22,388 nucleotides of DNA, from NCBI GenBank assembly GCA_048882045.1, contig JBHLRZ010000045.1:1-22388 (forward strand), given 5' to 3'. Under the pieces are notes generated by a model. It saw only the letters and a program-made list of their open reading frames with translations, made no database searches and was not told where the DNA came from. This document shows, one piece after another, positions 3,659-22,329 of this stretch. This stretch comes from Candidatus Thorarchaeota archaeon. GTDB lineage: Archaea; Asgardarchaeota; Thorarchaeia; Thorarchaeales; Thorarchaeaceae. A program made the position numbers and the translations under genes. How positions within the stretch are numbered: the stretch's first letter is position 1; each line of letters starts with the position of its first letter.

Positions 3659-5395
3659 CTACTTATGAGCGAATGATGCTTTCACTGGATCACCAGTGTC
3701 GTAAATCTTGGCAAATCCAACCCTTTCGAACTGTAGAAATGTACCTTCCTTCAGTTCAGTAATTCCTGGTTCGCCCAATCCGGTTTCAACCGACCCATCA
3801 ATCATTGTCAGCTCCATAGGTATGGACTTCTCTTTTGGAATCCAGTGGATTATAGAACCTCCAACCTTTCTAATTTCATCAACATCATCGCTATGATACA
3901 ACAACTCAACAGGTTTGAGACCCGTTACCGTGAAGTTTGCGTAATCCTTCAGGCGGACTAGACTACCTTTCTTCATTTTCTCAATATCATTCTGCGTGAG
4001 ACCAACTATGCCAGACCCATCGCGCAGACCAAGTGGAATCGTTCTGACCCCTTGTTTTGGAAAGTCCGGGTGGACGGGAACCTCAGCTATTGTAATGTTA
4101 TGGGGAACACCCGATGTTTCAGTCCATTCTGGGTCTCTCACGAAGAATGCTCTGGGCGCATATGCATCTCTCAGTTTTCTGTTCTCGGAATAAACTGACT
4201 TCATGGATATGGTTATGTCAACAACGCTGAGTCCAAGGTCCAACATCACTTTACGAAGAGCCCTCTGGTCAATCCCTCGCTTCTTCAACGATTGCATACT
4301 CCATGTCCGTGGGTCATCCCAACCTGTGTACTTGCCAGAAAGGACCTCAGCACGCGACTTACTTTTACTCAGTTTTGCATCCGCGAACTTGAGGCGACCA
4401 TAATAGAGGAGCTCCGGTTCCCTCCATCCATAGATACGCCAGATGTGTTGTTCGATCTTTCCCTCTTTCACAAGGTCCTTACCACGTACTATATGGGATA
4501 TTCCTAGTTCATGATCATCAATACCCCAAGAATACTCGAGTAAAGGCCATACTCGATACTTTGAACCAACTCGAGGATGTTCTGTTTCAGAAATTCTTAG
4601 AATCACATGATCCCGCATTGCAGGGTCAGGATCAGTCATGCCTGTCTTTAGACGGACTGCTGCAGCTCTTTCAGGATATGTCCCGTCAAGCATCTTCTCC
4701 CATCTAGCTAGATTGTCTTCGACTGGGAGACCCTGACATAGACAAGGGATACCCTTTGCCTTGTGTTCAGTCCTCCAGATGTTTGCGTCACAGTCACACA
4801 CATATGCCTCTTTCTTCTTAATCAAGTCTACAGCATAGTCATAGAAGAGCTGGAGGCGGTCTGACTTGTAGATGGTCTTGTGAACCTTTACATCCAGATA
4901 GTCAAGACTTTCCGGAATGAGGTCGAAAGCATCAGGCTCAACGACCTTCTCAGCAGAACCAATCGTGTCATCAAAAACCAATATGAGCTCCCCTTTATAC
5001 CGCTTGACATAATAATCATTCAGAATCACCATCCTGGAGTTGCCTACATGAAGCGGGCCTGATGGAAACGGAGCCAAGCGCATTACAATCTTTTTCCACT
5101 TGTCTGCATTGGGCAACTCGGGAGGTTCCTTTTCCTCAGTCGGTTCAATCACGTCTGGGATTTCGAAGAGTTCAGGAGCAATTTGTTTTAGTTCAGTAAT
5201 CTGATCATCAAGTGGAATTTTGCTGACTTCATTGACGATCTTTTCGACTAGTTTCTTCACTTCTTCAGCCTTTGGTCGAAGATCAGCCCTAGAACCGAGG
5301 ATTGCACTCATGACAGATTTGGCACTAGGTTTCCCTTCATACTTGACCGCATTATCCAATACAGCCTTTCGAACCTCGAGTTCAAGATTGTCCAT
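3659..5395 (-). CDS. gltX: Glutamyl-tRNA synthetase (archaeal type)
   Basis: RLAPFPSGPLHVGN (HIGH-like), FDDT, YVCDC, DHELGISHIVRGKD, KLSKS (KMSKS), GWDDPR, QFERVGF. Start set at ATG 5395 (MDNLE) because GGAGCTGA lies just upstream. Confidence 0.96.
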   Translation of the reverse strand: MDNLELEVRKAVLDNAVKYEGKPSAKSVMSAILGSRADLRPKAEEVKKLVEKIVNEVSKIPLDDQITELKQIAPELFEIPDVIEPTEEKEPPELPNADKWKKIVMRLAPFPSGPLHVGNSRMVILNDYYVKRYKGELILVFDDTIGSAEKVVEPDAFDLIPESLDYLDVKVHKTIYKSDRLQLFYDYAVDLIKKKEAYVCDCDANIWRTEHKAKGIPCLCQGLPVEDNLARWEKMLDGTYPERAAAVRLKTGMTDPDPAMRDHVILRISETEHPRVGSKYRVWPLLEYSWGIDDHELGISHIVRGKDLVKEGKIEQHIWRIYGWREPELLYYGRLKFADAKLSKSKSRAEVLSGKYTGWDDPRTWSMQSLKKRGIDQRALRKVMLDLGLSVVDITISMKSVYSENRKLRDAYAPRAFFVRDPEWTETSGVPHNITIAEVPVHPDFPKQGVRTIPLGLRDGSGIVGLTQNDIEKMKKGSLVRLKDYANFTVTGLKPVELLYHSDDVDEIRKVGGSIIHWIPKEKSIPMELTMIDGSVETGLGEPGITELKEGTFLQFERVGFAKIYDTGDPVKASFAHK

Positions 5396-6653: not shown

Positions 6654-8966
6654 TTATTTCTTTCCTCTCAGACCTGGAAACCAGTATTGGGTACTTTTGG
6701 AGTAGCTCTTCTGTTCCTTCGCGACTCCGTTTGATATCAGAAGCTCCAATGCGTTTCTTACTCTTTCCTCTTTCCAGCCAAGGTTGACTACTGCGTCTTC
6801 AATACTCAGGCGACCATCTTTCGTTGCGGCCAGGCTGAGTATCTCTTGGGGATCATCAGTCAAGGCGACTGGAACGAATTCAACCATGCGAGCTCCACCT
6901 TCCATGGTTGATAGTCCCTGAATCAGTCCCTCCTTTTCCATATCTTCTAAGAGGTCTTCTATCTCATCCGAATGAGTTCCCCATCCACTCTCATCCAAAC
7001 GTACCAAGAGTTCAGAGAATAGCATAATTCCGCCAAACTGCTTTGAATCGGCTGCCATCCTTAGGATATCGCGCCTCAAACCATCTGTTCTATCATCGCG
7101 CTTGAGTAATCTTTTAACCATCCCTGACTTCTTTTTGGCTTCTGCAATCCAAGACTCCGGCTCATAACCAAGTTCTGTCAAGAGCTCGACAAGGGCGGTT
7201 CGATAAGCGGGGATACTCAAAATAGTGCTCCCCTGATTCTCAAAGACTTCCCAGAGTCGTTCTCTAATCGAGTCCAAGCGTCTCGATCTATCTACTAATT
7301 CATCGAGTCGAACTGCAATCTGGTCTTCATGTGAGAGGGAATTGACAATTATTGGGATGGCCACATTACTTGTGGAAGTCAAGGTAAATTCAATCGTCTT
7401 ATCGAAGTATCCAGGGGCTACTACAACTCCTTCATAGTTGCTCATCGGTAATGAAACAACAATAGACCCTTTACTGTCAGATTTGGCTTGTAGAACTCCC
7501 AAGTCTAGTTCAGCATTTTCTAATGGTCTTCCGGCTTCATCCTGAATTTGAAACCTAACCCTACATAATGACTCGTCCGAGGTCACAGTCAGTTTTCTTC
7601 GCTTCAACTTGATCTTAGTTTCAGGAATTCCTGAGATGAGATCTTCAAGCTCTTTGATTAGTGGACGTTTGACTAGTCCATCTCCAAGGAGTGCTTTAGA
7701 ACCTTCCAGAATAGCTTCACGAGCCTCTTTAACTGACAACAAGTTATGAGTTTGAGACGAATCTCTGAGGAACTTCCTTAGAGCTACATCATTGTTTGCA
7801 CGTTCGCTAAGTAATGAAGCGACTGCACCGATTGCTCTGGTTGGAGTTTCAAACTCGTCAACGAAATCTCGCCGGCGACTCACTTTATCCCCCGTACTAA
7901 CCATCTGTGAGAGTGTGTAAATCTCGATTCCAAGTTGTCCTTTCTTCGAGAATCCAGCGAGGAAAAAGGGAATCATTATGAGAGTGCCTTTTGCATCTGA
8001 GTTTACAACAGAAAGTGGAACAGACAAGTCAGTCAGACTAGAAATCTGTTCCTGAATAGTTTTGTTAGCTGCTTGAACCTCGGCAAAGAAACCATCACGC
8101 TCCACTAGAAGTTCACGTGCTGAATCTTGAATATCAGCGAGGATTTCGTTTCGTTTGTCCTCATCTCGTTTGAGAGCCATCTTGCGAGATTCAATTGTAT
8201 TCCTAATTTCCTTGATTCTTGCTTTCTTCTTGTCTGAGGATGAAGTTTCTACAACCTTTAGTTCGGATTCCAGTTCGACAATCTGTTTCTCTAGAGATGC
8301 AATCCTTAGGTTCAATCGGGAAAGTGTTGGTGCAGATGTAGTTTCCTTGACACCTACTGTGTCCTCGACTCTAGTATTGATTATTTCTACGAGCTCAGAA
8401 ATAAGGTCATCAACTGAACTAATCACATCAACAGTTTCTCGCAGCAACTCTATAGATCTCATGAACTCCTTCTCTCCAAGGAGTCCGGATAGAGGAACTG
8501 CAAAATTCTCTATGCTGTTTCCCAGAGGTCTCTCGAGGAGCTGAGCTACTCCTCTTGACATCAGGCCACTCATCAGACCTAAGAGTGTTGAACGACTCGT
8601 ATTACGGAATGGAGTGATGATCTTTCGAGCACACTTGATTCCTTCCAGAAGATCACCAGTTCTCAAATCATCAAATGCAGAAGTGGCGTCGAACTTGCTA
8701 TGATGAGTCAATGATTCACTAGTAAGACCAAACAGCTCAACAAGAAAACTACGATTCTCAAATGGAGCAGGGACAATTACTACAGGCAGGTAACATTTGA
8801 GCATAAACTCGAGATCTCTACCATCTCTCTGCTCAATTGCTCGCATCACCATTCCAGCCATTACATAGTCTTCTGGGACAGCCTGTTCCATTGGCTGGCC
8901 TCCTGACAACTGGAGTCGCCTCGTAGCTGTTGCAGGTACAATGAGATTCCAGCGTTCAAAGTCCAT
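6654..8966 (-). CDS. Multidomain protein: N-terminal alpha/beta region with inserted coiled coil, beta-sandwich (carboxypeptidase-regulatory-like) domain, C-terminal EAP30/Vps22 (ESCRT-II)-like tandem winged helices
   Basis: C-terminus (PAYRTALVELLTELGYEP...GGIMLFSELL...FVPVALTDDPQEILSLA...NLGWKEERVRNALELLISNG...YWFPGL) follows the Snf8/Vps22 pattern. Heptad region about 8030-8400. QDEAGRPLENA...SDSKG...APGY beta-sandwich about 7340-7570. Start is ATG 8966 or ATG 8891 (GGAGG SD); the track's 9209 start overlaps the divergent gene. Confidence 0.8.
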   Translation of the reverse strand: MDFERWNLIVPATATRRLQLSGGQPMEQAVPEDYVMAGMVMRAIEQRDGRDLEFMLKCYLPVVIVPAPFENRSFLVELFGLTSESLTHHSKFDATSAFDDLRTGDLLEGIKCARKIITPFRNTSRSTLLGLMSGLMSRGVAQLLERPLGNSIENFAVPLSGLLGEKEFMRSIELLRETVDVISSVDDLISELVEIINTRVEDTVGVKETTSAPTLSRLNLRIASLEKQIVELESELKVVETSSSDKKKARIKEIRNTIESRKMALKRDEDKRNEILADIQDSARELLVERDGFFAEVQAANKTIQEQISSLTDLSVPLSVVNSDAKGTLIMIPFFLAGFSKKGQLGIEIYTLSQMVSTGDKVSRRRDFVDEFETPTRAIGAVASLLSERANNDVALRKFLRDSSQTHNLLSVKEAREAILEGSKALLGDGLVKRPLIKELEDLISGIPETKIKLKRRKLTVTSDESLCRVRFQIQDEAGRPLENAELDLGVLQAKSDSKGSIVVSLPMSNYEGVVVAPGYFDKTIEFTLTSTSNVAIPIIVNSLSHEDQIAVRLDELVDRSRRLDSIRERLWEVFENQGSTILSIPAYRTALVELLTELGYEPESWIAEAKKKSGMVKRLLKRDDRTDGLRRDILRMAADSKQFGGIMLFSELLVRLDESGWGTHSDEIEDLLEDMEKEGLIQGLSTMEGGARMVEFVPVALTDDPQEILSLAATKDGRLSIEDAVVNLGWKEERVRNALELLISNGVAKEQKSYSKSTQYWFPGLRGKK

Positions 8967-9066
8967 GGTGATACCTATGTTGAAGTCATGGGAACGCTTT
9001 TCATACTTTCTTATGGAGAATCCATTATCAATTTGAACGCGCCTGACAACCTGAGGAGTGAACGAA

Positions 9067-9414
9067 GTGAAAAGAGATGATCCAATTCTTCTACCAATCT
9101 GTAGTAAATGCAGGAAATACAAAGGAGTCGGATCATGCAACTGTAACGGTTCATCTGAGATGAAGAGCATTGTTACCAAATGTAGCCTGTGTGACAACGC
9201 AACTATCATCGAATGTGTGAGATGTGGTCAAGGATTCTGTCAGGTTCATGGATGGGAGGAAATTACAGGGCGCCTAACAAAATGGGACCAACGAATCGGA
9301 ACCTGTACAATCTGCAATCAATCAGTTTGCGAGAACTGCTGGCTTCTCGAGGATGATGGAAAAATAACATGTTTAGTCCATCATGAAGGACCTCCACATG
9401 ACTTAGAAGAGTGA
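9067..9414 (+). CDS. Zinc-finger protein with B-box-like Cys/His motifs
   Basis: CSKC...CNC, CSLC...CVRC...FCQVH, CTIC...VCENC...CLVHH. GTG 9067 lies 8 nt after GAGGAG; GTG 9058 is an alternative start. Confidence 0.78.
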   Translation: MKRDDPILLPICSKCRKYKGVGSCNCNGSSEMKSIVTKCSLCDNATIIECVRCGQGFCQVHGWEEITGRLTKWDQRIGTCTICNQSVCENCWLLEDDGKITCLVHHEGPPHDLEE

Positions 9415-9484
9415 ATTCAACCGCACCAATACATAACGGTCAAACATTTATGGACAAGCGTAACCTCAGATTATGTGGCGAGCC

Positions 9485-10600
9485 ATGCCAGAAGCGACTT
9501 TCGTAGTTCATCTAGATGATTTTCAAGGGTTCATTGTTAAACAGAGATACCCAAAGACCCTTGCATTAAATGAGAAGGTTCTCAATCTGATCTTCGTTGA
9601 GAAACAGGAGAGGAAAGAGAAGAACGAAACTCTTGCTGTGTCAGAGATAGAAGGTCTAAGAATTGCTACCTACAGTAACCCACAGTATCCAGGTTGGATG
9701 GTCTGTACATTACTCGAACCTGAAGAGGAAGTGGAGGAGCTCAGAGGTAGTCTATCAGGTTCAGGAAGACTCATCCTTGCACTAATGAGTGAGGACGATG
9801 AAGCGGTCAACCTAGAAGAGCTTGTTAAGAGTGGGAGCGTTCTGAAAGAGAAGAGTGAAGAACAGAATCTTGCGAGTATCTTTCTGACTCCATCTTCAGC
9901 CCTCCTTTTAGAACGAATGCAAGAAGAAGGTGTCGAGAAAGCAGCAAAACTGTCCATCTGGTTGAAGAACCAGGTCCAGGATGAGGTCGATCTAAGGGAA
10001 GCAATGGCACCCCTGATGAGTTCTGGGATAGTGAAGGTCGAACTAATAGGGAAGACTGCTGAAACGGTTTTTCTAGTCAAGGACTTGTTTGGCTATCGTG
10101 CTCCACCAGTTGAGTCAGTTTTGAAAGCTAAACACACTCATCCAACTATTGAACAAAAATACAGAGAGTTAGTAACTCAGTTCTTCTCTCCACCTCCACC
10201 AAATAAGGGTTACAACCCCACAATTCCAGTGAATGACCCGAATTCTCCAATTCTTGAAGACAGAGAGAAGATTTCTCGATTGATTGCAGATAGCCTGAAC
10301 TATATGGTTCTTGATACCCTCAGAGCAGAACCACTCACTGTCGCAGGTATCTCCGAGAAGACTGCATTGCCTAAGTCTTTAGTGATGAAGGTTCTATGGT
10401 CATTGGAAGCAGAGAAGGTTGTACTACGTTTCGAGGAGGAAGATGTTTGGGCTCTTCTGACCAATCCAAGAATTGAGTCCTTTGTTCCGGAATATGTCCT
10501 TCCAATGGTAGCCAAGAAGGTATCAGAGAAAGAAATAACACCTCAAGTAGCCCGGAGACATCTCGAACTCTTAATTCAGAATTGTGGTGAAGTACCGTGA
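9485..10600 (+). CDS. Longin/uDENN-like domain + two winged-helix domains (NPRL2-like architecture)
   Basis: N-terminal FVVHLDDFQGFIVKQRYP resembles the uDENN/NPR2 first beta-hairpin. Two wH-like units (LLLERMQEEG...LMSSGIVK; VLDTLRAEPLTVAGISEKT...LEAEKVV). Stop overlaps the GTPase start (GTGA). Confidence 0.75.
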   Translation: MPEATFVVHLDDFQGFIVKQRYPKTLALNEKVLNLIFVEKQERKEKNETLAVSEIEGLRIATYSNPQYPGWMVCTLLEPEEEVEELRGSLSGSGRLILALMSEDDEAVNLEELVKSGSVLKEKSEEQNLASIFLTPSSALLLERMQEEGVEKAAKLSIWLKNQVQDEVDLREAMAPLMSSGIVKVELIGKTAETVFLVKDLFGYRAPPVESVLKAKHTHPTIEQKYRELVTQFFSPPPPNKGYNPTIPVNDPNSPILEDREKISRLIADSLNYMVLDTLRAEPLTVAGISEKTALPKSLVMKVLWSLEAEKVVLRFEEEDVWALLTNPRIESFVPEYVLPMVAKKVSEKEITPQVARRHLELLIQNCGEVP

Positions 10601-11448
10601 TTAGAAGTGTCTACGTGCTTGGCGACCAAGGAAATATGTTGTATTCGAAGGATTATGCCAAGAGTGATTCAAAGGCGAACCTTGTAGAGTTCTTGATCAA
10701 TCTAACACATTTTCTGAAAACTGTGGACTTGGAGGAAAAGACAGAGTTCATGAATGTCGCTGTTTCACGAATCTTCTTTGCAAAGAGAGACACGTTCACT
10801 TTCCATTTTGTGGCTGACAAAGCAGATGATGCAACTCAGATAGAGGAGAAGATGGAACAACTGGTTGACTCATTCATGCGTGATTATGCCAACCTGGCTC
10901 TCGCAAATCAACCACTTGACGGATTTGACGAAAAAGTCGATGAGATCGCTGTCACAATGGTTAAGGTGGCCATTCTGGGATTTGCAGGCGTGGGAAAGAC
11001 AACAACACTTCATCTCTTGCGTGGCGAAACACTTCCACTTGTGCATGACCCAACAATTGGTGTCAGCATCAAGAAGCTGCCTGAAGAAGTTGAGAACGCA
11101 AACATAGTGCTTTGGGATCTTGCAGGTCAATCCCGCTTCAGCATCCTATGGGCGAAGATGATTGCCAATGCTCAGGTTGTCATCATCGTAACAGACAGCA
11201 CCCTGGAGAATGTTTTGAGGAGTAAGAAACTTGTCACTCTTGTCAAGGATGAGGTTCCTGATGCAAAGGTCATTGGGATTGCAAACAAGCAAGACCTTCC
11301 AACAGCTTTGACTCCAGAGAGAGTAGGTCAGATTCTTGGGATTCCCACCTACGAACTTGTGGCTATTGATATCTCTTACAGAGACCGTCTTATTCAGATT
11401 ATTCGTAGAGCTATCCTCGAAGGCAAAGCTGAAGCAAAAGCAGCATAA
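10597..11448 (+). CDS. Longin-domain + Arf-like small GTPase fusion
   Basis: N-terminus MIRSVYVLGDQGNMLYSKDY resembles longin/sigma-adaptin. G1 GFAGVGKTT, G2 PTIG, G3 WDLAGQ, G4 NKQDLP. Confidence 0.9.
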   Translation: MIRSVYVLGDQGNMLYSKDYAKSDSKANLVEFLINLTHFLKTVDLEEKTEFMNVAVSRIFFAKRDTFTFHFVADKADDATQIEEKMEQLVDSFMRDYANLALANQPLDGFDEKVDEIAVTMVKVAILGFAGVGKTTTLHLLRGETLPLVHDPTIGVSIKKLPEEVENANIVLWDLAGQSRFSILWAKMIANAQVVIIVTDSTLENVLRSKKLVTLVKDEVPDAKVIGIANKQDLPTALTPERVGQILGIPTYELVAIDISYRDRLIQIIRRAILEGKAEAKAA

Positions 11449-11551
11449 ACTCGAGACGTATTATGCGTTGAAGAGTGGGATATGCATCAAGGCAAAGGTT
11501 AAGAGTTAAACAGAGTGAGTTATCGCAACAGCCGCCTATAGGTGACTAACA

Positions 11552-12145
11552 ATGTCCTTTGATTTAGAAGGTATAATGGCCAAATTGAAAGAAATAGAAG
11601 GCTTCGCTGAGAACGTAACGCAAACCAAGAAGCTTGCAGATGACTTGGCTGAGAACTTCGCAAAGATGAAGACTAATATCAACCAAGCAATCAATGACGG
11701 CTTTACAGAGATAGCCAATCAGATTGAAGCACTCAGACAGAACATGGAGAAAATGGAAAGCGTAAAGACAGATGCCCCAAAAGTTGACGCTCCGGCCCCG
11801 GCAGTAACCCCAACACCGGCGCCCGCGCCGGAGGTTACACCAGCCCCAGAACCAGCTCTTGAGGTGGCACCTGAGCCTACTCCAGCACCTTCTCCTGAAC
11901 CAACACCAGCGCCTGAGCCAACCCCAGCACCCGAGCCAGCTCCCGCAGTGGAGGCAGCTCCTGCAGAGGGTGACGATCAGATGGATTTCCTTCTACAGCA
12001 GAAGGACAGACTGAAAGCTCAGTTGACTGATTTGCGGTTCGACTATATGCGTGGATACATCCCAGAGGACGAGTACAAGACCAAAGAATCTGAGCTCGAT
12101 ACACAGCTGGAAGATGTTGACAAGCAGATTGCTGCTCTGAAATAG
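11552..12145 (+). CDS. Coiled coil + Pro/Ala-rich linker + C-terminal SHOCT/steadiness-box-like helical hairpin
   Basis: N-terminal heptads, PAPEPT repeats, C-terminal LTDLRFDYMRGYIPEDEYKTKESEL. SD AGGTGA upstream. Confidence 0.78.
   Translation: MSFDLEGIMAKLKEIEGFAENVTQTKKLADDLAENFAKMKTNINQAINDGFTEIANQIEALRQNMEKMESVKTDAPKVDAPAPAVTPTPAPAPEVTPAPEPALEVAPEPTPAPSPEPTPAPEPTPAPEPAPAVEAAPAEGDDQMDFLLQQKDRLKAQLTDLRFDYMRGYIPEDEYKTKESELDTQLEDVDKQIAALK
11790..11965 (+). repeat. Coding low-complexity tandem repeats (PAPEPT-type linker)
   Basis: Imperfect repeats such as ccagcacctXctcctgaaccaaca / ccagcgcctgagccaacc / ccagcacccgagcca. Confidence 0.7.
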
Positions 12146-12166
12146 ACAGGTTTTCATAGAGTATTT

Positions 12167-12228
12167 GGCTCGCACTCTGGACTCTTCGAGTCTTAAGAAT
12201 AGAGTGCGAGGCCTACTTCTTCTTTTCT
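12167..12228. terminator. Long hairpin followed by a T-rich tract between convergent genes (putative terminator or structured 3' UTR)
   Basis: CTCGCACTCT (12169-12178) is the exact reverse complement of AGAGTGCGAG (12201-12210). Inner GACTC/GAGTC stem; followed by TTCTTCTTTTCT. Confidence 0.45.
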
Positions 12229-12284
12229 CTAAGTTTTCATTTCTCGAATATATGTGCTGACAAGTTTCTGTCTTGGGAGGTCCA

Positions 12285-13220
12285 TCACTCTTTCTTCTTA
12301 GTTGACCCTGATTTTGTTGCCTTCTTTGCAGTTGTCGTCTTGGCTGACTTTTTCTCTTCCGCCTTCTTTGATTTAGTCGTTTTCTTAGGAGAAGCTTTCT
12401 CTTCGGCTTTCTTCTTTGTAGTAGTCTTCTTAGCTGGTTTCTTCTCTTCGGCTTTCTTCTTAGCGGAAGTCTTCTTTGCTGCAGCCTTCGTCTTTGGCTC
12501 TTCTTTCTTTTCCTCTTTCTTCTTGGAGGGTGCTTTCTTCTTAGGAGCTTCCTTTTCCTCAGCCTTCTTCTTCTTAGTTGTCTTCTTGGCTGGCTTCTTC
12601 TCTTCTGCCTTCTTCTTAGCCGGAGCTTCCTTCTTCGTTGGGGCTTTCTTCTTAGATGGAGCCTTTTTCTTCGGTTTTTCTTCCAGTTCAGGTTCGGGAA
12701 TGTGTTGTGGTTCAAGAGGTTCGACAATGACCTCTGGTCGTTCATCCTTTCGCTCCTTCTTTTCACCAACCTCTCTTCGTTTCCAAGCGAGTTTACTTGG
12801 TTTAACTACACCGGGAGTTCCAGCGGCAAGGAGTGCGATATCCATCTCCTCAGTGATGATAGGTTGTTTGGGAACACTTGAAGCAATCTCTTCGAGGGCA
12901 TCAGCTACCATGATAGGAGCTCCTTCCTGTCTCTTCTCGAGCTCAGCAGGAATAGTATAGACAACGAATCCTCCCTCCCTGATATAAGGGACTACAACAC
13001 CTTCAGCTTCTTTCTCTCGTAGAATCTTTCGTGCTATACTCATGCGGATATTGAAACGATTGGCAAGATCAAAGCTAGTGACAGATTTTGCTTTCTGCAA
13101 GTATTCATCAATACTTGACAATGTATCGGCTTTTGGAACTGCATCTCTGATGATTCGCTCTGTCTTTGCGGCTGATTTGCCCCACTTTTTACGACTGATA
13201 TTAATTACTCTCCTAGGCAC
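12285..13220 (-). CDS. rps25e: 30S ribosomal protein eS25 (S25e) with a ~210-aa C-terminal extension, Lys/Ala/Glu-rich in its distal part
   Basis: N-terminal ~95 aa (RKKWGK...VTSFDLANRFNIRMSIARKILREKEAEGVV...VVYT) match the eS25 winged-helix pattern. Tail of KKKAEEKK repeats. Confidence 0.85.
   Translation of the reverse strand: MPRRVINISRKKWGKSAAKTERIIRDAVPKADTLSSIDEYLQKAKSVTSFDLANRFNIRMSIARKILREKEAEGVVVPYIREGGFVVYTIPAELEKRQEGAPIMVADALEEIASSVPKQPIITEEMDIALLAAGTPGVVKPSKLAWKRREVGEKKERKDERPEVIVEPLEPQHIPEPELEEKPKKKAPSKKKAPTKKEAPAKKKAEEKKPAKKTTKKKKAEEKEAPKKKAPSKKKEEKKEEPKTKAAAKKTSAKKKAEEKKPAKKTTTKKKAEEKASPKKTTKSKKAEEKKSAKTTTAKKATKSGSTKKKE
12290..12680 (-). repeat. Coding repeats KKKAEEK(K/E)xxKK / KKKAP(S/T)KKK in the eS25 tail
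   Basis: Repeated ttctcttc(g/t)gc(t/c)ttcttct units on the + strand. Confidence 0.7.
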
Positions 13221-13312: not shown

Positions 13313-13975
13313 ATGATTTCAGTAGCTGATATCGACCATATAGCCAAGACCCTTGTGTCCCTAGTTTACCCAGAACTTCAGGAGAGGGAAATTGTTCTAT
13401 CATGTGGACGGACTTCTTGTTATGGTCAGGTTAGTTGGAGGGATGAAGACAACAAGATCAGCATTAGCTTAAATGAGAGCGTCAGAATGTGGCACCCAGC
13501 AGGTATCACAGGCCTTCTTTCTCATGAGTTAAGTCATCCATCACAAAAAGGTTCAGGTTTCAAGGAATGGAAGACTGATGAAGATGTGATCATGAGAGGA
13601 TTGGGACCATATCTTGCCATTGAAAGACTACAAACTGGTAAGTACGATGACCATGTAATTCAGAATGGCAAGGATAGATACTTTGGGTATCGAATGATTA
13701 GAAAAGCCTTGACTCCAATTGAAACTGAGAATTTAGACATACTTATGTTTCAACTAGCCCTCAAACCATCTCAAGTGAATCAACATGCTTGGTTCAGCCA
13801 CGATGTCGTAATCCATGAGCGTGAGGGAGTATCGTCGGTTGTTGTTGAAGGTGAACATTTCATACTTCCAAAAGGATTGGTTGAGCCAGATATCAAGACC
13901 GTAAATCGAAATGGCATTGTTTTTGTATATGCTGAGGAAACTCTCATAGGGCAATACACTGAGTCGGATATCTAG
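13313..13975 (+). CDS. Putative zincin-like metallopeptidase (HExxH)
   Basis: GLLSHELSH motif preceded by YG...ISISL strands. ATG 13313 with AGGAG upstream. Confidence 0.65.
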   Translation: MISVADIDHIAKTLVSLVYPELQEREIVLSCGRTSCYGQVSWRDEDNKISISLNESVRMWHPAGITGLLSHELSHPSQKGSGFKEWKTDEDVIMRGLGPYLAIERLQTGKYDDHVIQNGKDRYFGYRMIRKALTPIETENLDILMFQLALKPSQVNQHAWFSHDVVIHEREGVSSVVVEGEHFILPKGLVEPDIKTVNRNGIVFVYAEETLIGQYTESDI

Positions 13976-15261
13976 TCAGACAAATCCTTACGCTTTTTTA
14001 TGATGAGTTTTTGAGAGAGGGAAACATCACTGGCTGGAGGAATGTCTTCCGAAACCACACATCCTGCAGAAATGATGCTATTCTCGCCAATACGTGTTGC
14101 AGGATATATGGATGCATTGACCCCGATGTCTACATTGTCACCAACAATTGCACCAAACTTCCTCTGAGGTATCTCGACAGTTTCAGTTTCGTTCTTCAGA
14201 AATAAGGGATCCTTTCCAGGTCGCCAGTTCCACAGTTGTGCTCCTGCTTCGATACATGTATCCGCTCCAATGATGGAATCAGCCAAGTAGGTCATTCTCC
14301 CCACATTGACTCTGTCAAAGACCATCGAGTTCCTCATTTCCACAGCGTATCCTATCTTGACACCGTCACAAAGACTGCTGTAGTCGCGAATAAGCGAGTT
14401 ATTACCTACATAGACTCGTTTTCCAATATATATTGGTCCTCGAAGGGTTGTGTTCGGTCGGATTATACTCCCTTCACCGATATGCACGGATCCTTCAATG
14501 ACAACGCTTGGATGAACATCTGCAGATTCTGCTATGTAACTACCCTTACCAAGTAATCGTCTGTCCATGACGATGCGATTTGCCTTGAGAATATCCCAAG
14601 GCCAAGTGAACTCAGCCCATTCCTTCTCCCAGACTGCTGCAGATACTTGTCGTCCATCTGCCATAAAATGTTCAAAGGCCTTTTCCATTGCAAGGTGTTT
14701 TTCCAGAAATGGTAGGATGTCTGTTGAGAACACTGAAACTCCTGCTACTGCATAATTGCTAACGTATCGCTCCGGCCCACCCTTCTCAACTAGTTTCTCA
14801 ACAACACCATTAGATCCAATCTTGACTGTACCAAACTGCTCAGGATTAGATACTAGAGTGACTAGCATTGTGACGTCACTCTTCATGGTTTCATGGTTAG
14901 AGAGGGTTCTGGAAACCATTTGGGGTTCAACTAGTACATCACCATTAACCAACAGGAATTTCTTTTCACCATCCAATTCATCACGAGCAGTGAGGATTGC
15001 ATTTTCAACACCCTCTTGTTTGTGTTGAATCACATACCTAATCCTGACATCTTGGTCACCACCCATCTGAAAGTGGTCGATGAGTTCCTCTCTTCCGTGG
15101 CCCACAACTATGATGATATCGCGAATTCCATTCTCCATAAGACTGTCAATGATATACTGAAGAACCGGTCTTCCTGCGATCATCAGCATCGACTTCGATC
15201 TCTTTGCTGTAAGTGGTCTCAACCGTTGACCTTCTCCAGCTGTCAGAACAAGAGCTTTCAT
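13972..15261 (-). CDS. glmU: Bifunctional sugar-1-phosphate nucleotidyltransferase / acetyltransferase (archaeal GlmU-like)
   Basis: LTAGEGQRLRPLT...K, NGD, EK, PWDILKAN, left-handed beta-helix hexapeptide repeats, KFGAIVGD. Confidence 0.88.
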   Translation of the reverse strand: MKALVLTAGEGQRLRPLTAKRSKSMLMIAGRPVLQYIIDSLMENGIRDIIIVVGHGREELIDHFQMGGDQDVRIRYVIQHKQEGVENAILTARDELDGEKKFLLVNGDVLVEPQMVSRTLSNHETMKSDVTMLVTLVSNPEQFGTVKIGSNGVVEKLVEKGGPERYVSNYAVAGVSVFSTDILPFLEKHLAMEKAFEHFMADGRQVSAAVWEKEWAEFTWPWDILKANRIVMDRRLLGKGSYIAESADVHPSVVIEGSVHIGEGSIIRPNTTLRGPIYIGKRVYVGNNSLIRDYSSLCDGVKIGYAVEMRNSMVFDRVNVGRMTYLADSIIGADTCIEAGAQLWNWRPGKDPLFLKNETETVEIPQRKFGAIVGDNVDIGVNASIYPATRIGENSIISAGCVVSEDIPPASDVSLSQKLIIKKRKDLSD

Positions 15262-17985: not shown

Positions 17986-20900
17986 ATGAAAAAGGGAAAA
18001 AGCGAGAATCTTTCAGAGAGGAAAGACGTTGGGGAGATGGATTACGATTGGGTAGAAATAATCAAGCTTCACAAACAGGAGGCAGAGTCCAATCTGGAAA
18101 TGAAAAATATGGAAGAATCTGCTGTTGCATACAAGAAGCTTGGATATGCTTGTGCTCAGTTTGCAGAAACGGTTGATACTGCAGATGAAAATGTAGGCCA
18201 TACCAAAAATGCTGTTGATGCTTTCAGAAAAGCTGCGACACTCTATAAACAGACAGGCAAGAAGCCGGAGGAATTTGAATGCATTGGAGAAGCCTTCTTT
18301 TTCAATGGGTTAATAGCTGGGTCCAATATGGAAGGAAAGAAGGCGTTTAGCAAATCTTATGAGCAATTCATTAAATCAAGCGACCTCTTTACCAAGGAGA
18401 ATGATCAAGAGGGTCGAGCGCGGACTCTGAGTCGTGCTGCGTTGGCGTCATTCTATCTAGTTACTCAATATAGTGACAAACTAGAGATTGAACAGCTTAT
18501 TCAAGAAGGTATAACCATTGCAGGAGAATCTTGGAAACTTTCAAACAATGTTGGAAATGTTCAATCTCTTGCTGAATCATTATACGCTGAATTTTGGCTA
18601 TGTTGGGCGCATATGCTTGTTGCACCTTATAGATGGGATGAGAATTGGAAGGAATACAACAGGAAAATTCTATTGAGGTGTGATGAAAGTATAAAAGCTA
18701 CTGAGGATTGCGACAATCCTCTATTCATTAGTATGGTTCACCTTGCAGCTGGTACCCTATACTACTTCTTTGGATTTAATTTCATAAAGGATGAAAAAGA
18801 GCAGAGAGAATACACCGAGAAAGGATTTCAGTTAGGGGAGAAGGCTGTAGTCTTCGCAAAGAGAGCGAATAATAAAATTTTGATATTATCTTCACTATGG
18901 TGGTTGAACTGGAACGCCCTATCTACAGGAAGACACGAGTACCTCCAGAAACAAATATTCGAAGACATCTGGATTATGGAAGAGATTGGAAGAATATATG
19001 CAAACTCAAACAGCTTTTGGTTTCATTCCGGAAGAGGCATGCCCGCCTTCTGCTATGCAAACTTGGCTCGAATGAGTTTTTTCACAAGTACTCAAAGGAA
19101 ATCTTTTGCCGAGAAGGCAATTGAACATATCATGGAGGGTTTGAAGAAGTTTGCCTTCAGACCAGCAATTACCTGGCAATATCAGATGTTAACATGGGCA
19201 CATTCACTGCTATCTACTCTTGCTACTACAAAAGATGAGCGGAATCAACACGCACAGAAAATGCTTCAATATGCCAGACAGGGTGAAAAAATCGGGGAAG
19301 AATACGATGGTGGATGGGCTCGAGCCGCTGGGTACTCTTCCACCTATGGAGCCTACAAGACTCTTGCAGACATGGCACAAAACGAAAAAGAAAGAATCAA
19401 GCATCTATCAGCTGCAGTAGATGCTGCTACAAAGTATAATCAACATTCAGTGGAAAGCCGCACTGGCATCGTAGCAGCCCAAGTGCGGCTAGGGCTTCTC
19501 TTCGAAGAGCTTGGTAAATTAACGACGAATGTCAAACCGCTTAGAAAGGCAAAGGAGACATTTCTTGGAGTAATCAAGGAGAGTCGTGAGAGGAGATATC
19601 ATTTCTATGAAGCTGCTGGTCACGAATATACTGCACATATCGAAGATCGACTTGGCAACCATATTGCTTCAGCTGAACACTACGAAAAAGCTCAGGAGGC
19701 CCATACTAAGTCTTTGAAAACAATTGACTTCAAACCTTTGAAAGAGAGAGTTAAGGAGAAAATAGACTACGCTCGAGCATGGAACATGATTGAGAAGGCT
19801 AAGGCCCATCACAGGATGTCAGATTACCAAAAAGCCAAGGAAGATTATGAGAAAGCTTGTGAAATTTTGAAAGAACTACCAAGCTATGATTATGAAGCAT
19901 CCTACTTCGCAGCCTGGGGTCTGCAGGAAGAAGCTGAACAACTTAGTAAACAGGAAAATCATGAGCAGGCTTTGGAGAGATATGAAGCAACTAGGAGGAG
20001 CTTCGATAGCGCGATAAAATCACTAGAAGAAACCTCCACTTCTTTGGAAAACAGATGGGAAAGAGAAAGAATCGAGAAACTCAAGAAAGTTGCTAAGGTG
20101 AGAATGAACTACTGCTCCGGTAGAGCAAATATCGAAAGAGCACGAATACTAGGAAAGCAGGGTGACCACCTAGCAGCTGCAGAGAGATTTGCCTCAGCGG
20201 CTTCTGAGTTTAGCGACGTTCTCACTCAATTCAAAATCAAAGCGGAACGTAAGGAATTAGAAGCTGTATACAACCTCTGCAGAGCCTGGGAGAGCATGGA
20301 GCTTGCAGAGAACTATGATGACGCAGACAAATTCGCAGAAGCAGCAAGCCTATTCACCAAAGCCAGTAAGCTGTTCACTGATACCAAGCTGAAACTGCTA
20401 GCTACAGGCAACTCAGCCTTTTGTAAGGCTTTAGAACACGGGTGCAAATTTGATGAGTCAACTGAAACCGATGTCAAAGCACTACTTTATCCAAAGATCA
20501 AGACGATACTTAGAAAGGCAGCATCTGCCTATCGGAAAGGGGGTCACGATGGCGGAGCTGATTGGGCTCTGGCAACATCTAGCTATTTCGATGCGACATG
20601 GCACTTTATCAAAGCGGATGAGGAGCTGGATATTGACGAAAGGAAGAAATTCCTAAGAATCGCGACTAAATATCTGAAGTCAGCGGCTGAACTCTTCAGT
20701 AAATCGGGTTACAAGCACAAAGAGAGAGAGATTTTAGGTCGCCTAGAAATGGTAGAGAAGGAAGAGAGTATTCTAGTCTCCGCATTAGACATAATAATAG
20801 AACCATCTATCTCTAGAAGCACAGTAGGTATTGTCGCCCCTTCTTGTCCAACAGAAACCAGTCTCCCTCCAAGAATAGGTGAAGTTCGTCAGTTCACCGA

Positions 20901-21810
20901 AAGTGCAACAATGGTCAGAGATGAAGCCAGTCAGAGAAAATACGAACTCATCTACAAGAACCTACTCAAAGAACACTCAAACGTCCAGAGAACTGAGTAC
21001 AGAGTTGGCATCGCCCAGATAGGAGTTTCCAACACAAGCGACATTCTAAACGAATTCTATGAGATGAAGGCAGATGGCTTTCTAGGTCTTAGGCATGATA
21101 AAGTAGATGCAGTAAGATCCAAAGTCAAGAGCATGATAGAATTCGCTCAAAGAGAAGGAGTCAATATCCTACTCTTCCCGGAAATGACCATCGACCTCAA
21201 CTACAAGGAATTGCTTGAAGAAATAACTCATCAGGCTGAGATTTACGGAATGTACATAATACCAGGTTCGTACCATGATGATAATACAAAACAGAACCTC
21301 TGTGTGGTCGTAGGACCAGACGGAATCCTTTGGAATCAGGAGAAGCACATTCCAGCTACCATTCACTATAAAGGTGAAAGGTTCACTGAGAAAATAGGAA
21401 TTGGAGCACTCCCAAGGAGAACGTTCATTTGTGATACAGAGTTTGGGAGAATAGCAATTGTCATATGTCGAGACTTTCTGGACATGGACCTAAGGGTGGA
21501 GTTAAAGAACTTTGAACCTCCAGTGGATATAGTTTTCAACCCAGCATTCACACCAGTCACAGCAGACTTCAAAGCAGCACATTTTGATGCCCGTAGGTCT
21601 ATCTACGCCTATTGCTTCTTCGCCAATGTCGCTGAATTTGGAGATTCTCTCATTTACACACCTGAGAAAGAACGTGTCGAAAGGAGTCTGCCATCAAAGG
21701 AAGAGGGTCTAATCTACAAGGATGTACACCTTTTCCAACTTCGTTCAGAGCGTAGAAAATGGGAAAAGCAGCAGGAAAATCAAAGGTCGTTTATACAAAG
21801 CACAAGATGA
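17986..21810 (+). CDS. Large TPR/SNAP-like helical-repeat protein with C-terminal carbon-nitrogen hydrolase (nitrilase-family) domain
   Basis: About 950 aa of Ala-rich helical repeats (AAEHYEKA-, AKEDYEKA-, AAERFASA-type). C-terminal RVGIAQ...LLFPEM...IIPGS...QEKH...ICRDF...ANVAEFGDS with E-K-C triad. GGAGG SD at 17978. Confidence 0.88.
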   Translation: MKKGKSENLSERKDVGEMDYDWVEIIKLHKQEAESNLEMKNMEESAVAYKKLGYACAQFAETVDTADENVGHTKNAVDAFRKAATLYKQTGKKPEEFECIGEAFFFNGLIAGSNMEGKKAFSKSYEQFIKSSDLFTKENDQEGRARTLSRAALASFYLVTQYSDKLEIEQLIQEGITIAGESWKLSNNVGNVQSLAESLYAEFWLCWAHMLVAPYRWDENWKEYNRKILLRCDESIKATEDCDNPLFISMVHLAAGTLYYFFGFNFIKDEKEQREYTEKGFQLGEKAVVFAKRANNKILILSSLWWLNWNALSTGRHEYLQKQIFEDIWIMEEIGRIYANSNSFWFHSGRGMPAFCYANLARMSFFTSTQRKSFAEKAIEHIMEGLKKFAFRPAITWQYQMLTWAHSLLSTLATTKDERNQHAQKMLQYARQGEKIGEEYDGGWARAAGYSSTYGAYKTLADMAQNEKERIKHLSAAVDAATKYNQHSVESRTGIVAAQVRLGLLFEELGKLTTNVKPLRKAKETFLGVIKESRERRYHFYEAAGHEYTAHIEDRLGNHIASAEHYEKAQEAHTKSLKTIDFKPLKERVKEKIDYARAWNMIEKAKAHHRMSDYQKAKEDYEKACEILKELPSYDYEASYFAAWGLQEEAEQLSKQENHEQALERYEATRRSFDSAIKSLEETSTSLENRWERERIEKLKKVAKVRMNYCSGRANIERARILGKQGDHLAAAERFASAASEFSDVLTQFKIKAERKELEAVYNLCRAWESMELAENYDDADKFAEAASLFTKASKLFTDTKLKLLATGNSAFCKALEHGCKFDESTETDVKALLYPKIKTILRKAASAYRKGGHDGGADWALATSSYFDATWHFIKADEELDIDERKKFLRIATKYLKSAAELFSKSGYKHKEREILGRLEMVEKEESILVSALDIIIEPSISRSTVGIVAPSCPTETSLPPRIGEVRQFTESATMVRDEASQRKYELIYKNLLKEHSNVQRTEYRVGIAQIGVSNTSDILNEFYEMKADGFLGLRHDKVDAVRSKVKSMIEFAQREGVNILLFPEMTIDLNYKELLEEITHQAEIYGMYIIPGSYHDDNTKQNLCVVVGPDGILWNQEKHIPATIHYKGERFTEKIGIGALPRRTFICDTEFGRIAIVICRDFLDMDLRVELKNFEPPVDIVFNPAFTPVTADFKAAHFDARRSIYAYCFFANVAEFGDSLIYTPEKERVERSLPSKEEGLIYKDVHLFQLRSERRKWEKQQENQRSFIQSTR

Positions 21811-21840: not shown

Positions 21841-21857
21841 ATACAACTTTTAGGAGA
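21841..21857 (+). promoter_or_regulatory. Putative promoter of sRNA 1
   Basis: ATACAACTTTTAGGAGA. TTTTA begins 29 nt before the predicted sRNA 5' end; identical 17-mer precedes sRNA 2. Confidence 0.6.
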
Positions 21858-21876
21858 AAGTCACTATTTTCTTCAC

Positions 21877-21952
21877 GTGGCATTTCTGTGAGGCGGTTAC
21901 CCCTGGCTGAGCTTCGGCGATGACGAGCCAAGAGCAAGCTGAGATCTGCCAC
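21877..21952 (+). ncRNA. Box C/D 2'-O-methylation guide sRNA (copy 1)
   Basis: Terminal stem GTGGCA/TGCCAC; box C GTGAGGC (21888); 12-nt guide GGTTACCCCTGG; D' CTGA (21907); GC-TTCG-GC hairpin; C' ATGACGA (21920); 12-nt guide GCCAAGAGCAAG; D CTGA (21939); T-rich tract after. Confidence 0.85.
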
Positions 21953-21968
21953 TCTTTCTTCTCAATCA

Positions 21969-21985
21969 ATACAACTTTTAGGAGA
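21969..21985 (+). promoter_or_regulatory. Putative promoter of sRNA 2
   Basis: ATACAACTTTTAGGAGA, identical to 21841-21857. TTTTA begins 28 nt before the predicted 5' end. Confidence 0.6.
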
Positions 21986-22003
21986 CACAGGAGATATTTT
22001 CCT

Positions 22004-22079
22004 GTGGCTAATCTGTGAAGCAGTTACCCCTGACTGAGCTCAAGCAATGAAGACACGGTGAGCAGCTGAGATTTGCCAC
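22004..22079 (+). ncRNA. Box C/D 2'-O-methylation guide sRNA (copy 2)
   Basis: Terminal stem GTGGCTAATC/GATTTGCCAC; box C GTGAAGC (22015); 12-nt guide AGTTACCCCTGA; D' CTGA (22034); GC-TCAA-GC hairpin; C' ATGAAGA (22047); 12-nt guide CACGGTGAGCAG; D CTGA (22066); T-tract after. Confidence 0.85.
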
Positions 22080-22161
22080 TCTATTTTTCGTTTCAACAGA
22101 AGTAGTAATGGCCAAGACCTTGTGGGAGGAGAGAGATAGGACACCCGGTCCTTTTGGAGGA

Positions 22162-22329
22162 CTAGACCTCGGACTTCAGAACGAGTTTGTTCTTCTCAAT
22201 CGAAATCCCGAATTCCTGCCCTTCGTCATCAAACAGGGATACATCCTCTTCCTTCATGAACACCTTCACGGTCTTCCGCAATTTCCTGGAAGGGATCTTT
22301 CCCATTGGGATGACATAGGTCTCGGCCAA
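22162..22329 (-). CDS. Small hypothetical protein, 55 aa (MAETYVIPMGKIPSRKLRKTVKVFMKEEDVSLFDDEGQEFGISIEKNKLVLKSEV)
   Basis: Translated by hand; below the apparent ~60-aa cutoff of the ORF track. TTG start with GGAG upstream, TAG stop, protein-like composition. Confidence 0.62.
   Translation of the reverse strand: MAETYVIPMGKIPSRKLRKTVKVFMKEEDVSLFDDEGQEFGISIEKNKLVLKSEV

Follow-up and report, generated by a model that had tools for sequence, protein, structure and literature searches.

In archaeal box C/D guide RNAs, L7Ae binds the K-turns, Nop5 and fibrillarin join the particle, and methylation falls on the ribose of the base that faces D+5 (PMC6009581, PMC11542601). The closest described counterpart of the locus reported here is sR7 of Methanopyrus kandleri, whose D' guide is directed to 23S G2720 and whose D guide is directed to C2784, positions that correspond by alignment to 2446 and 2510 (PMC4644070 supplement). 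The sR101 RNA of Methanococcus maripaludis, a mesophile with few sRNAs, also has a D' guide to G2720 (= 2446; PMC4644070). In eukaryotes, the equivalents of 2446 are yeast Gm2815, guided by snR38, and human Gm4362/4392, and the human equivalent of 2510 is Cm4426/4456 (SNORD49), 64 nt beyond Gm4362/4392, with the equivalent sites of plants, algae and Dictyostelium likewise 64 nt apart (PMC8817022, PMC9941101, PMC11542601). Paralogues with one guide in common and the other different have been described in M. kandleri (sR24/25 and sR56/103; PMC4644070), and composite sRNAs of Pyrobaculum document guide replacement between families (PMC6009581).

Compared with these systems, the pair of RNA genes found in a 22,388-nt stretch of Thorarchaeota DNA (the whole stretch analysed, hereafter the window) is of a kind and mechanism already known. 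Copy 1 matches the published Methanopyrus sRNA in both targets and their positions, and duplicated sRNAs sharing one guide have precedents; the newer part is copy 2, which shares only the D' target with sR7 and carries a family-restricted guide. The guide bases of the Methanopyrus and Thorarchaeota RNAs each match the rRNA of their own organism, and the Thorarchaeota RNA stands apart from sR7 by its tandem paralogue, a longer terminal stem, C boxes of variant sequence and a D guide mismatched at D+2 and D+3. Unlike the Thorarchaeota copies, sR101 has a D guide without a predicted target. In comparison with the M. kandleri and Pyrobaculum duplicates, the pair is arranged head-to-tail, its promoter is repeated and its second guide is directed to the A-loop at 2555. 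The internal motif described for Pyrobaculum is an open K-loop, whereas that of the Thorarchaeota RNAs is a stem-closed K-turn. Finally, eukaryotes need two snoRNAs for the two sites, namely snR38/SNORD1 and SNORD49A/B, while copy 1 covers both.

The locus occupies positions 21841-22094 of the window, on the + strand; it follows a 1274-aa gene, whose stop is at 21810, and is bounded on the other side by a 55-aa ORF in convergent orientation. The first-pass annotation had described a duplicated unit consisting of an identical 17-nt motif, a 76-nt RNA and a T-rich end, and each element is found where it had been placed. The 17-mers have a spacing of 128 and the two 76-nt units, which lie in tandem, a spacing of 127; a whole-genome search returned exactly two exact copies of the 17-mer in 3.6 Mb. 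Both units follow the order terminal stem, C, 12-nt guide, D', GC-N4-GC hairpin, C', 12-nt guide, D, T-rich tail, with the following features:

21841-21857, + strand: putative promoter 17-mer of copy 1, a BRE-like element followed by the TATA-like TTTTAGG (21848-21854)
21877-21952, + strand: box C/D sRNA copy 1, 76 nt with terminal stem
21888-21894, + strand: box C of copy 1 (variant), forming the terminal K-turn with box D at 21939-21942
21895-21906, + strand: D' guide of copy 1, 11 Watson-Crick pairs with 23S 2442-2452, D+5 at G2446
21907-21910, + strand: D' box of copy 1
21911-21918, + strand: GC-TTCG-GC hairpin of copy 1, 2-bp stem and UUCG tetraloop
21920-21926, + strand: C' box of copy 1
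21907-21926, + strand: internal stem-closed K-turn of copy 1 (D' box, stem-loop, 3-nt bulge, C' box)
21927-21938, + strand: D guide of copy 1, 8 Watson-Crick pairs and one G.U with 23S 2509-2517, D+5 at C2510
21939-21942, + strand: box D of copy 1
21953-21964, + strand: T-rich tail of copy 1, putative terminator, T-enriched in homologues
21969-21985, + strand: putative promoter 17-mer of copy 2, identical to that of copy 1, TATA-like box at 21976-21982
22004-22079, + strand: box C/D sRNA copy 2, 76 nt with terminal stem
22015-22021, + strand: box C of copy 2 (variant)
22022-22033, + strand: D' guide of copy 2, 10 Watson-Crick pairs with 23S 2443-2452, D+5 at G2446
22034-22037, + strand: D' box of copy 2
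22038-22045, + strand: GC-TCAA-GC hairpin of copy 2, 2-bp stem and 4-nt loop
22047-22053, + strand: C' box of copy 2
22034-22053, + strand: internal K-turn of copy 2 (D' box, stem, loop, bulge, C' box)
22054-22065, + strand: D guide of copy 2, 9 Watson-Crick pairs with the A-loop/helix 92 (2552-2560), D+5 at U2555
22066-22069, + strand: box D of copy 2
22080-22094, + strand: T-rich tail of copy 2, putative terminator

The terminal stem, the four boxes, the uniform 12-nt length of all four guides and the GC-N4-GC hairpin that closes the D'/C' motif in both copies (UUCG in copy 1) were likewise as first described, with the refinement that the C boxes are variants. GTGAGGC in copy 1 and GTGAAGC in copy 2 deviate from RUGAUGA at positions 5 and 7, but pairing to the D strand is preserved beyond the sheared GA pairs, as G.U or A-U followed by G-C and C-G. 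The terminal C/D motif has the 3-nt bulge, the tandem sheared GA pairs and the flanking stems of a K-turn, and the internal D'/C' boxes form a second such motif, closed by a stem of 2 bp or more. A guide-blind pattern that includes both K-turn stems matched the genome twice, at these two units, and gave no match in the reversed or complemented genome; being modelled on these units, the pattern gauges the chance rate alone. Single-sequence folding of the two units was not significant (z -0.46 and -0.28), as is expected of C/D RNAs. No Rfam family reached its gathering score anywhere in the window.

Conservation of the element extends well beyond this genome. A DNA search recovered it genus-wide as well as from several further genera of the family, and the G2446 guide with its boxes is found in 54 of 86 family genomes (3 of 400 in the reversed control). 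The first-pass annotation had proposed a covariance-model scan and had made the boxes' conservation in relatives a test of its reading: a model built from 50 units gave matches in 36 of the 39 family genomes that are at least 90% complete, showing the element to be conserved across the family. Only two copies were found by the model in this genome, and copy 1, whose sequence is included in the model, scores 88.8 bits. In the alignment of the 50 units, pairing of the named structure holds in 93.6% of cells (88.6% after shuffling, 19-39% after sliding), and 4 of its 10 pairs show two-sided changes; since the rows are related and were chosen by pattern, these figures are supportive and are not probabilities. 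Both pairs of the internal 2-bp stem are retained in all 50 units, one of them with a two-sided change, and in some homologues the stem is longer and its pairing is maintained, which identifies the C'/D' motif as a stem-closed K-turn. We conclude that both units are real, unannotated guide-RNA genes. Weak model matches in other Asgard families (L236, L239, L240, L235) are other C/D-like RNAs, several of which have guides seemingly directed toward the P-loop region.

The assignment of the DNA to an Asgard archaeon also held, the glutamyl-tRNA synthetase encoded in the window having matches of up to 83% in Candidatus Thorarchaeota. The window also contains Arf-like, EAP30-like and S25-like genes, in a cluster at 6654-13220 that encodes an 851-aa EAP30/Vps36-like protein (a weak match), a GTPase of the Arf family and a protein of 311 aa whose N-terminus carries a ribosomal S25 domain. 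The genes for fibrillarin, Nop5 and L7Ae, whose presence had been suggested as a check, are all found in the genome: those for fibrillarin and Nop5 are neighbours on contig C2, and contig C11 carries two genes of the L7Ae family. The genome also contains an FtsJ/RlmE-family gene, the product of which could be a guide-free source of Um2552. The idea that the tandem pair might be the only C/D RNAs of this genome (G000) was rejected, as strict scans overlooked at least two others, located at C33 ~14723-14796 (+) and C31 ~13850-13925 (+), with guides to 23S helix 69 and to the 16S rRNA; the terminal stem of the helix-69 RNA starts and ends like the stems of the tandem pair.

Because the assembly contains no rRNA genes, targets were read on the 16S and 23S genes of same-genus genomes, using E. 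coli numbering and the D+5 rule. For every guide the top match in the combined 16S and 23S search falls in the peptidyl-transferase region of the 23S rRNA, and the D+5 pair is Watson-Crick in all four. The D' guides (11 pairs for copy 1, 10 for copy 2) are directed to G2446, with 2 of 60 shuffles equally good. The D guide of copy 1 is directed to C2510 by 8 pairs and a G.U (11 of 60 shuffles equal), with mismatches at D+2 and D+3 that may lower its activity, and that of copy 2 to U2555 in the A-loop by 9 pairs (13 of 60 shuffles equal); as neither D guide exceeds chance by match length, their assignment rests on conservation and covariation. A second target for the copy 1 D guide at 2491-2497 was rejected, involving only 6 Watson-Crick pairs that lie in variable 3' guide bases.

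Covariation between guide and target is seen at several positions. In the 23S rRNA of G035 and G371 position 2555 is A, and the D+5 base of the guide has changed from A to T; this is a single event in one genus (two genomes), but the U-to-A change falls on the target base itself and thereby fixes the register of the guide. Two further genomes were left out of this count, G034 having a T-type 2555 guide and no assembled 23S, and G011 having a fragment with A2555 at a contig end and no 2555 guide. In G037, a genome of another family, positions 2515-2516 of the rRNA are different and so are the guide bases that face them, by which one of the two pairs is re-formed. The rRNA at 2444 and 2448 differs between Thorarchaeota and Methanopyrus/Methanococcus, and the guides track both differences. 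G352 and G353 carry a T-type G2446 guide, yet show no compensation in the rRNA, and their retained G2448 would form a G.U wobble. T-type matches in G109 and on contig C24 of G358, which come without C'/D, were attributed to chance. Regarding the target region itself, the A-loops at L180 and L181 (G035 and G371) represent a natural A at 2555 in one genus, and the A-loop is marked family-wide by C2554 and, where the usual closing pair would be, by an opposition G2551.A2557. The 23S gene of G010 (L035 ~4082-4864) has a 783-nt intron-like insertion immediately 3' of A2451, within the segment that pairs with the G2446 guide, containing an open frame of at least 233 aa.

This covariation with rRNA also bears on the question of whether the guides might act on tRNAs, or the units be a repeat of some other type (CRISPR-like, MITE or riboswitch), an explanation of negligible probability. 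The D' guides do score 8-8.5 points against tRNA 5' regions; these matches lie below the 23S match and at chance level, so that tRNA targets were rejected, and the presence of just two copies in the genome, with no Rfam family at gathering score, is unlike such a repeat.

Taken together, these data make it highly probable that the locus comprises two paralogous archaeal dual-guide box C/D sRNA genes that direct methylation of the 23S rRNA, in line with the dual-guide reading of the first-pass annotation, for which conservation, covariation, the rRNA targets and the occurrence of the three core proteins in the genome all speak. Transcription of each gene would start at its own TATA promoter and end at a U-rich terminator; L7Ae would then bind both K-turns, the terminal one (C/D) and the internal one (C'/D'), followed by Nop5 and fibrillarin, and the guides would pair with pre-23S rRNA ahead of the folding of domain V, allowing fibrillarin to methylate the ribose opposite the fifth guide base before D or D'. 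The predicted products are Gm2446 (both copies), Cm2510 (copy 1) and Um2555 in the A-loop (copy 2). Judged from the sequences, these three nucleotides at the catalytic centre of the ribosome are most likely sugar-methylated.

A rival reading is that the RNAs bind these rRNA segments mainly as folding chaperones of domain V, connecting 2442-2452 with 2509-2517 or 2552-2560, with one or both D guides methylating weakly or never. Such a role has been proposed for dual guides (PMC4644070), pairing at D+2 and D+3 of the copy 1-type D guide is lost in most of the family, and Nm2555 is absent from the archaeal and eukaryotic lists compared. On the other hand, all four guides form a Watson-Crick pair at D+5, and this pair was regained after the change at 2555; 2446 and 2510 are methylation sites known elsewhere, and in 10 units the 2555 guide is kept though the D' guide has lost its match to G2446, so that bridging to 2446 is evidently unnecessary. 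A predominantly chaperone function is therefore regarded as improbable, although a chaperone role alongside methylation is possible and the two readings are compatible.

The methylation guides occur in two kinds with different distributions. Among the 50 distinct units, 33 are of the G2446/C2510 type, 6 combine G2446 with 2555, 10 have the 2555 guide with another D' guide, and the last one belongs to the C2510 type, its G2446 guide being a variant. Units of the G2446/C2510 type are also present in G037 and in at least nine genomes of a distant Asgard family, in which the D guide pairs fully with its target, and copy 1 would represent this old and widespread type. The same layout in other Asgard families favours common descent with the Methanopyrus gene, bearing in mind that guides can converge. 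The 2555 guide is found in 20 of 86 family genomes, in five genera, a patchiness suggesting that it can be dispensed with or frequently escapes assembly; a search of 260 genomes from other Asgard families, made with a relaxed D-guide pattern, did not find it. The D' guide that accompanies it is directed to G2446 in some genomes and to A2587 in G367, and lacks a clear target in others. The G367 sRNA (L153 ~1466-1530) has a D' guide that matches the 23S rRNA around A2587 with 10 pairs, and decayed versions of it are observed in G033, G034 and G365.

Copy 2 would be a paralogue built on the same scaffold, which has kept the G2446 guide and bears a family-restricted A-loop guide. Its D' guide is redundant with that of copy 1, it is missing in many close relatives, and one genome (G024) has a decaying tandem duplicate, all of which might be expected if copy 2 were a non-functional remnant of a recent duplication. 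However, the boxes and stems of copy 2 are all intact, its D guide is not a drifted copy 1 guide but a distinct one that occurs in five genera and shows covariation, and the pair has the same order in G004, G012 and, in another genus, G364; a remnant is accordingly very improbable. The duplicate in G024 (L016, - strand, ~1467-1670) lies upstream of, and in tandem with, an intact G2446/C2510 sRNA.

The tandem pairs themselves show signs of exchange between copies. In G000 and G364 the promoter and D' guide of each copy are nearer to those of the neighbouring copy than to the equivalent in the other genus, a likeness that fits either homogenisation of a long-standing pair by gene conversion or duplication on repeated occasions. 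Where a single unit carries one or the other D guide, the second copy may truly have been lost or may have collapsed in assembly. On balance, and with modest confidence, we lean towards a lineage-specific guide in part of the Thorarchaeota family that methylates A-loop position 2555, tracks the U-to-A change and swaps D' partners (2446, 2587 or none), the promoter and D' guide being apparently homogenised in tandem pairs while the D guides stay distinct.

As to expression, the claim that the two RNAs are independently promoted is well supported by inference from the sequence. The TATA-like box lies 28-29 nt 5' of the terminal stem in both copies and is equally spaced in stand-alone homologues; the TATA-like word begins 37-39 nt ahead of the K-turn bulge in 29 of 49 units, with T-rich tails downstream, and similar boxes occur 5' of tRNA genes in this genome. 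A scan for sigma-70 promoters and intrinsic terminators, the models of which are not applicable to archaea, found none. Each copy is likely transcribed from its own promoter, to judge from this spacing. In copy 1 the 17-mer begins ~30 nt past the stop of the same-strand 1274-aa gene, so that read-through may occur.

It is conceivable from this proximity that both RNAs are cut from a longer transcript, either dicistronic or continuing the mRNA of the upstream gene at its 3' end, the 17-mer then being a leftover of the duplication, and sRNA dicistrons are known in Pyrobaculum (PMC6009581). This we consider unlikely: the 17-mer is identical whereas its flanks have diverged, the TATA-like box is equally spaced in stand-alone homologues with other upstream neighbours, and it precedes both copies in G004, G012 and G364. 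A longer transcript would in any case concern expression alone and leave the identity of the RNAs untouched.

The protein of the upstream gene (17986-21810, +), directly 5' of copy 1, has TPR-like repeats and a C-terminal carbon-nitrogen hydrolase domain. The 55-aa ORF that faces the sRNAs (22162-22329, -) adjoins the locus in many same-genus genomes and has no match in Pfam or Atlas. Four sequencing runs matched small parts of the stretch, as assembled low-depth contigs that are uninformative for a 76-nt RNA: those of three RNA runs cover only the 55-aa downstream ORF, and those of one run, probably DNA, carry relatives of the sRNAs.

The eukaryotic guides invite a comparison with the Thorarchaeota D' guide. 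In the snoR38 consensus (RF00213) the guide precedes D' in the same register, and it differs from the commonest Thorarchaeota guide core by one base, facing 2448. This family is the best, though weak, Rfam match, at 21 bits (E 5.7) against a gathering score of 45, which places the RNA outside it. A special link between Asgard archaea and eukaryotes was rejected, since Methanopyrus and Methanococcus guide the same sites, and copy 1 is hence an expected member of an old type rather than an Asgard-only bridge. Position 2555, the base of which stacks on C74 of the A-site tRNA (bioRxiv 10.1101/2022.07.15.499945), is absent from the 719 predictions in seven archaea (PMC4644070) and from the eukaryotic methylation tables compared; wheat Um2924, considered as an equivalent, corresponds to 2552 and was rejected. 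The status of 2555 as a new methylation site is provisional and applies to the tables compared.

The pair adds well-supported, unannotated guide RNAs to the Thorarchaeota lineage, for which no published catalogue of guide RNAs was found within an incomplete coverage of the literature, and it provides three exact methylation predictions for the Asgard ribosome, at 2446, 2510 and 2555. The first two sites are common to Asgard archaea, euryarchaea and eukaryotes, which makes them candidates for modifications older than the eukaryotes, and at these sites one archaeal dual guide does the job of two eukaryotic snoRNAs. Methylation at 2555, if it takes place, would be new to the A-loop, and the family as a whole displays the birth, swapping and decay of guides on a scale at which they can be traced.
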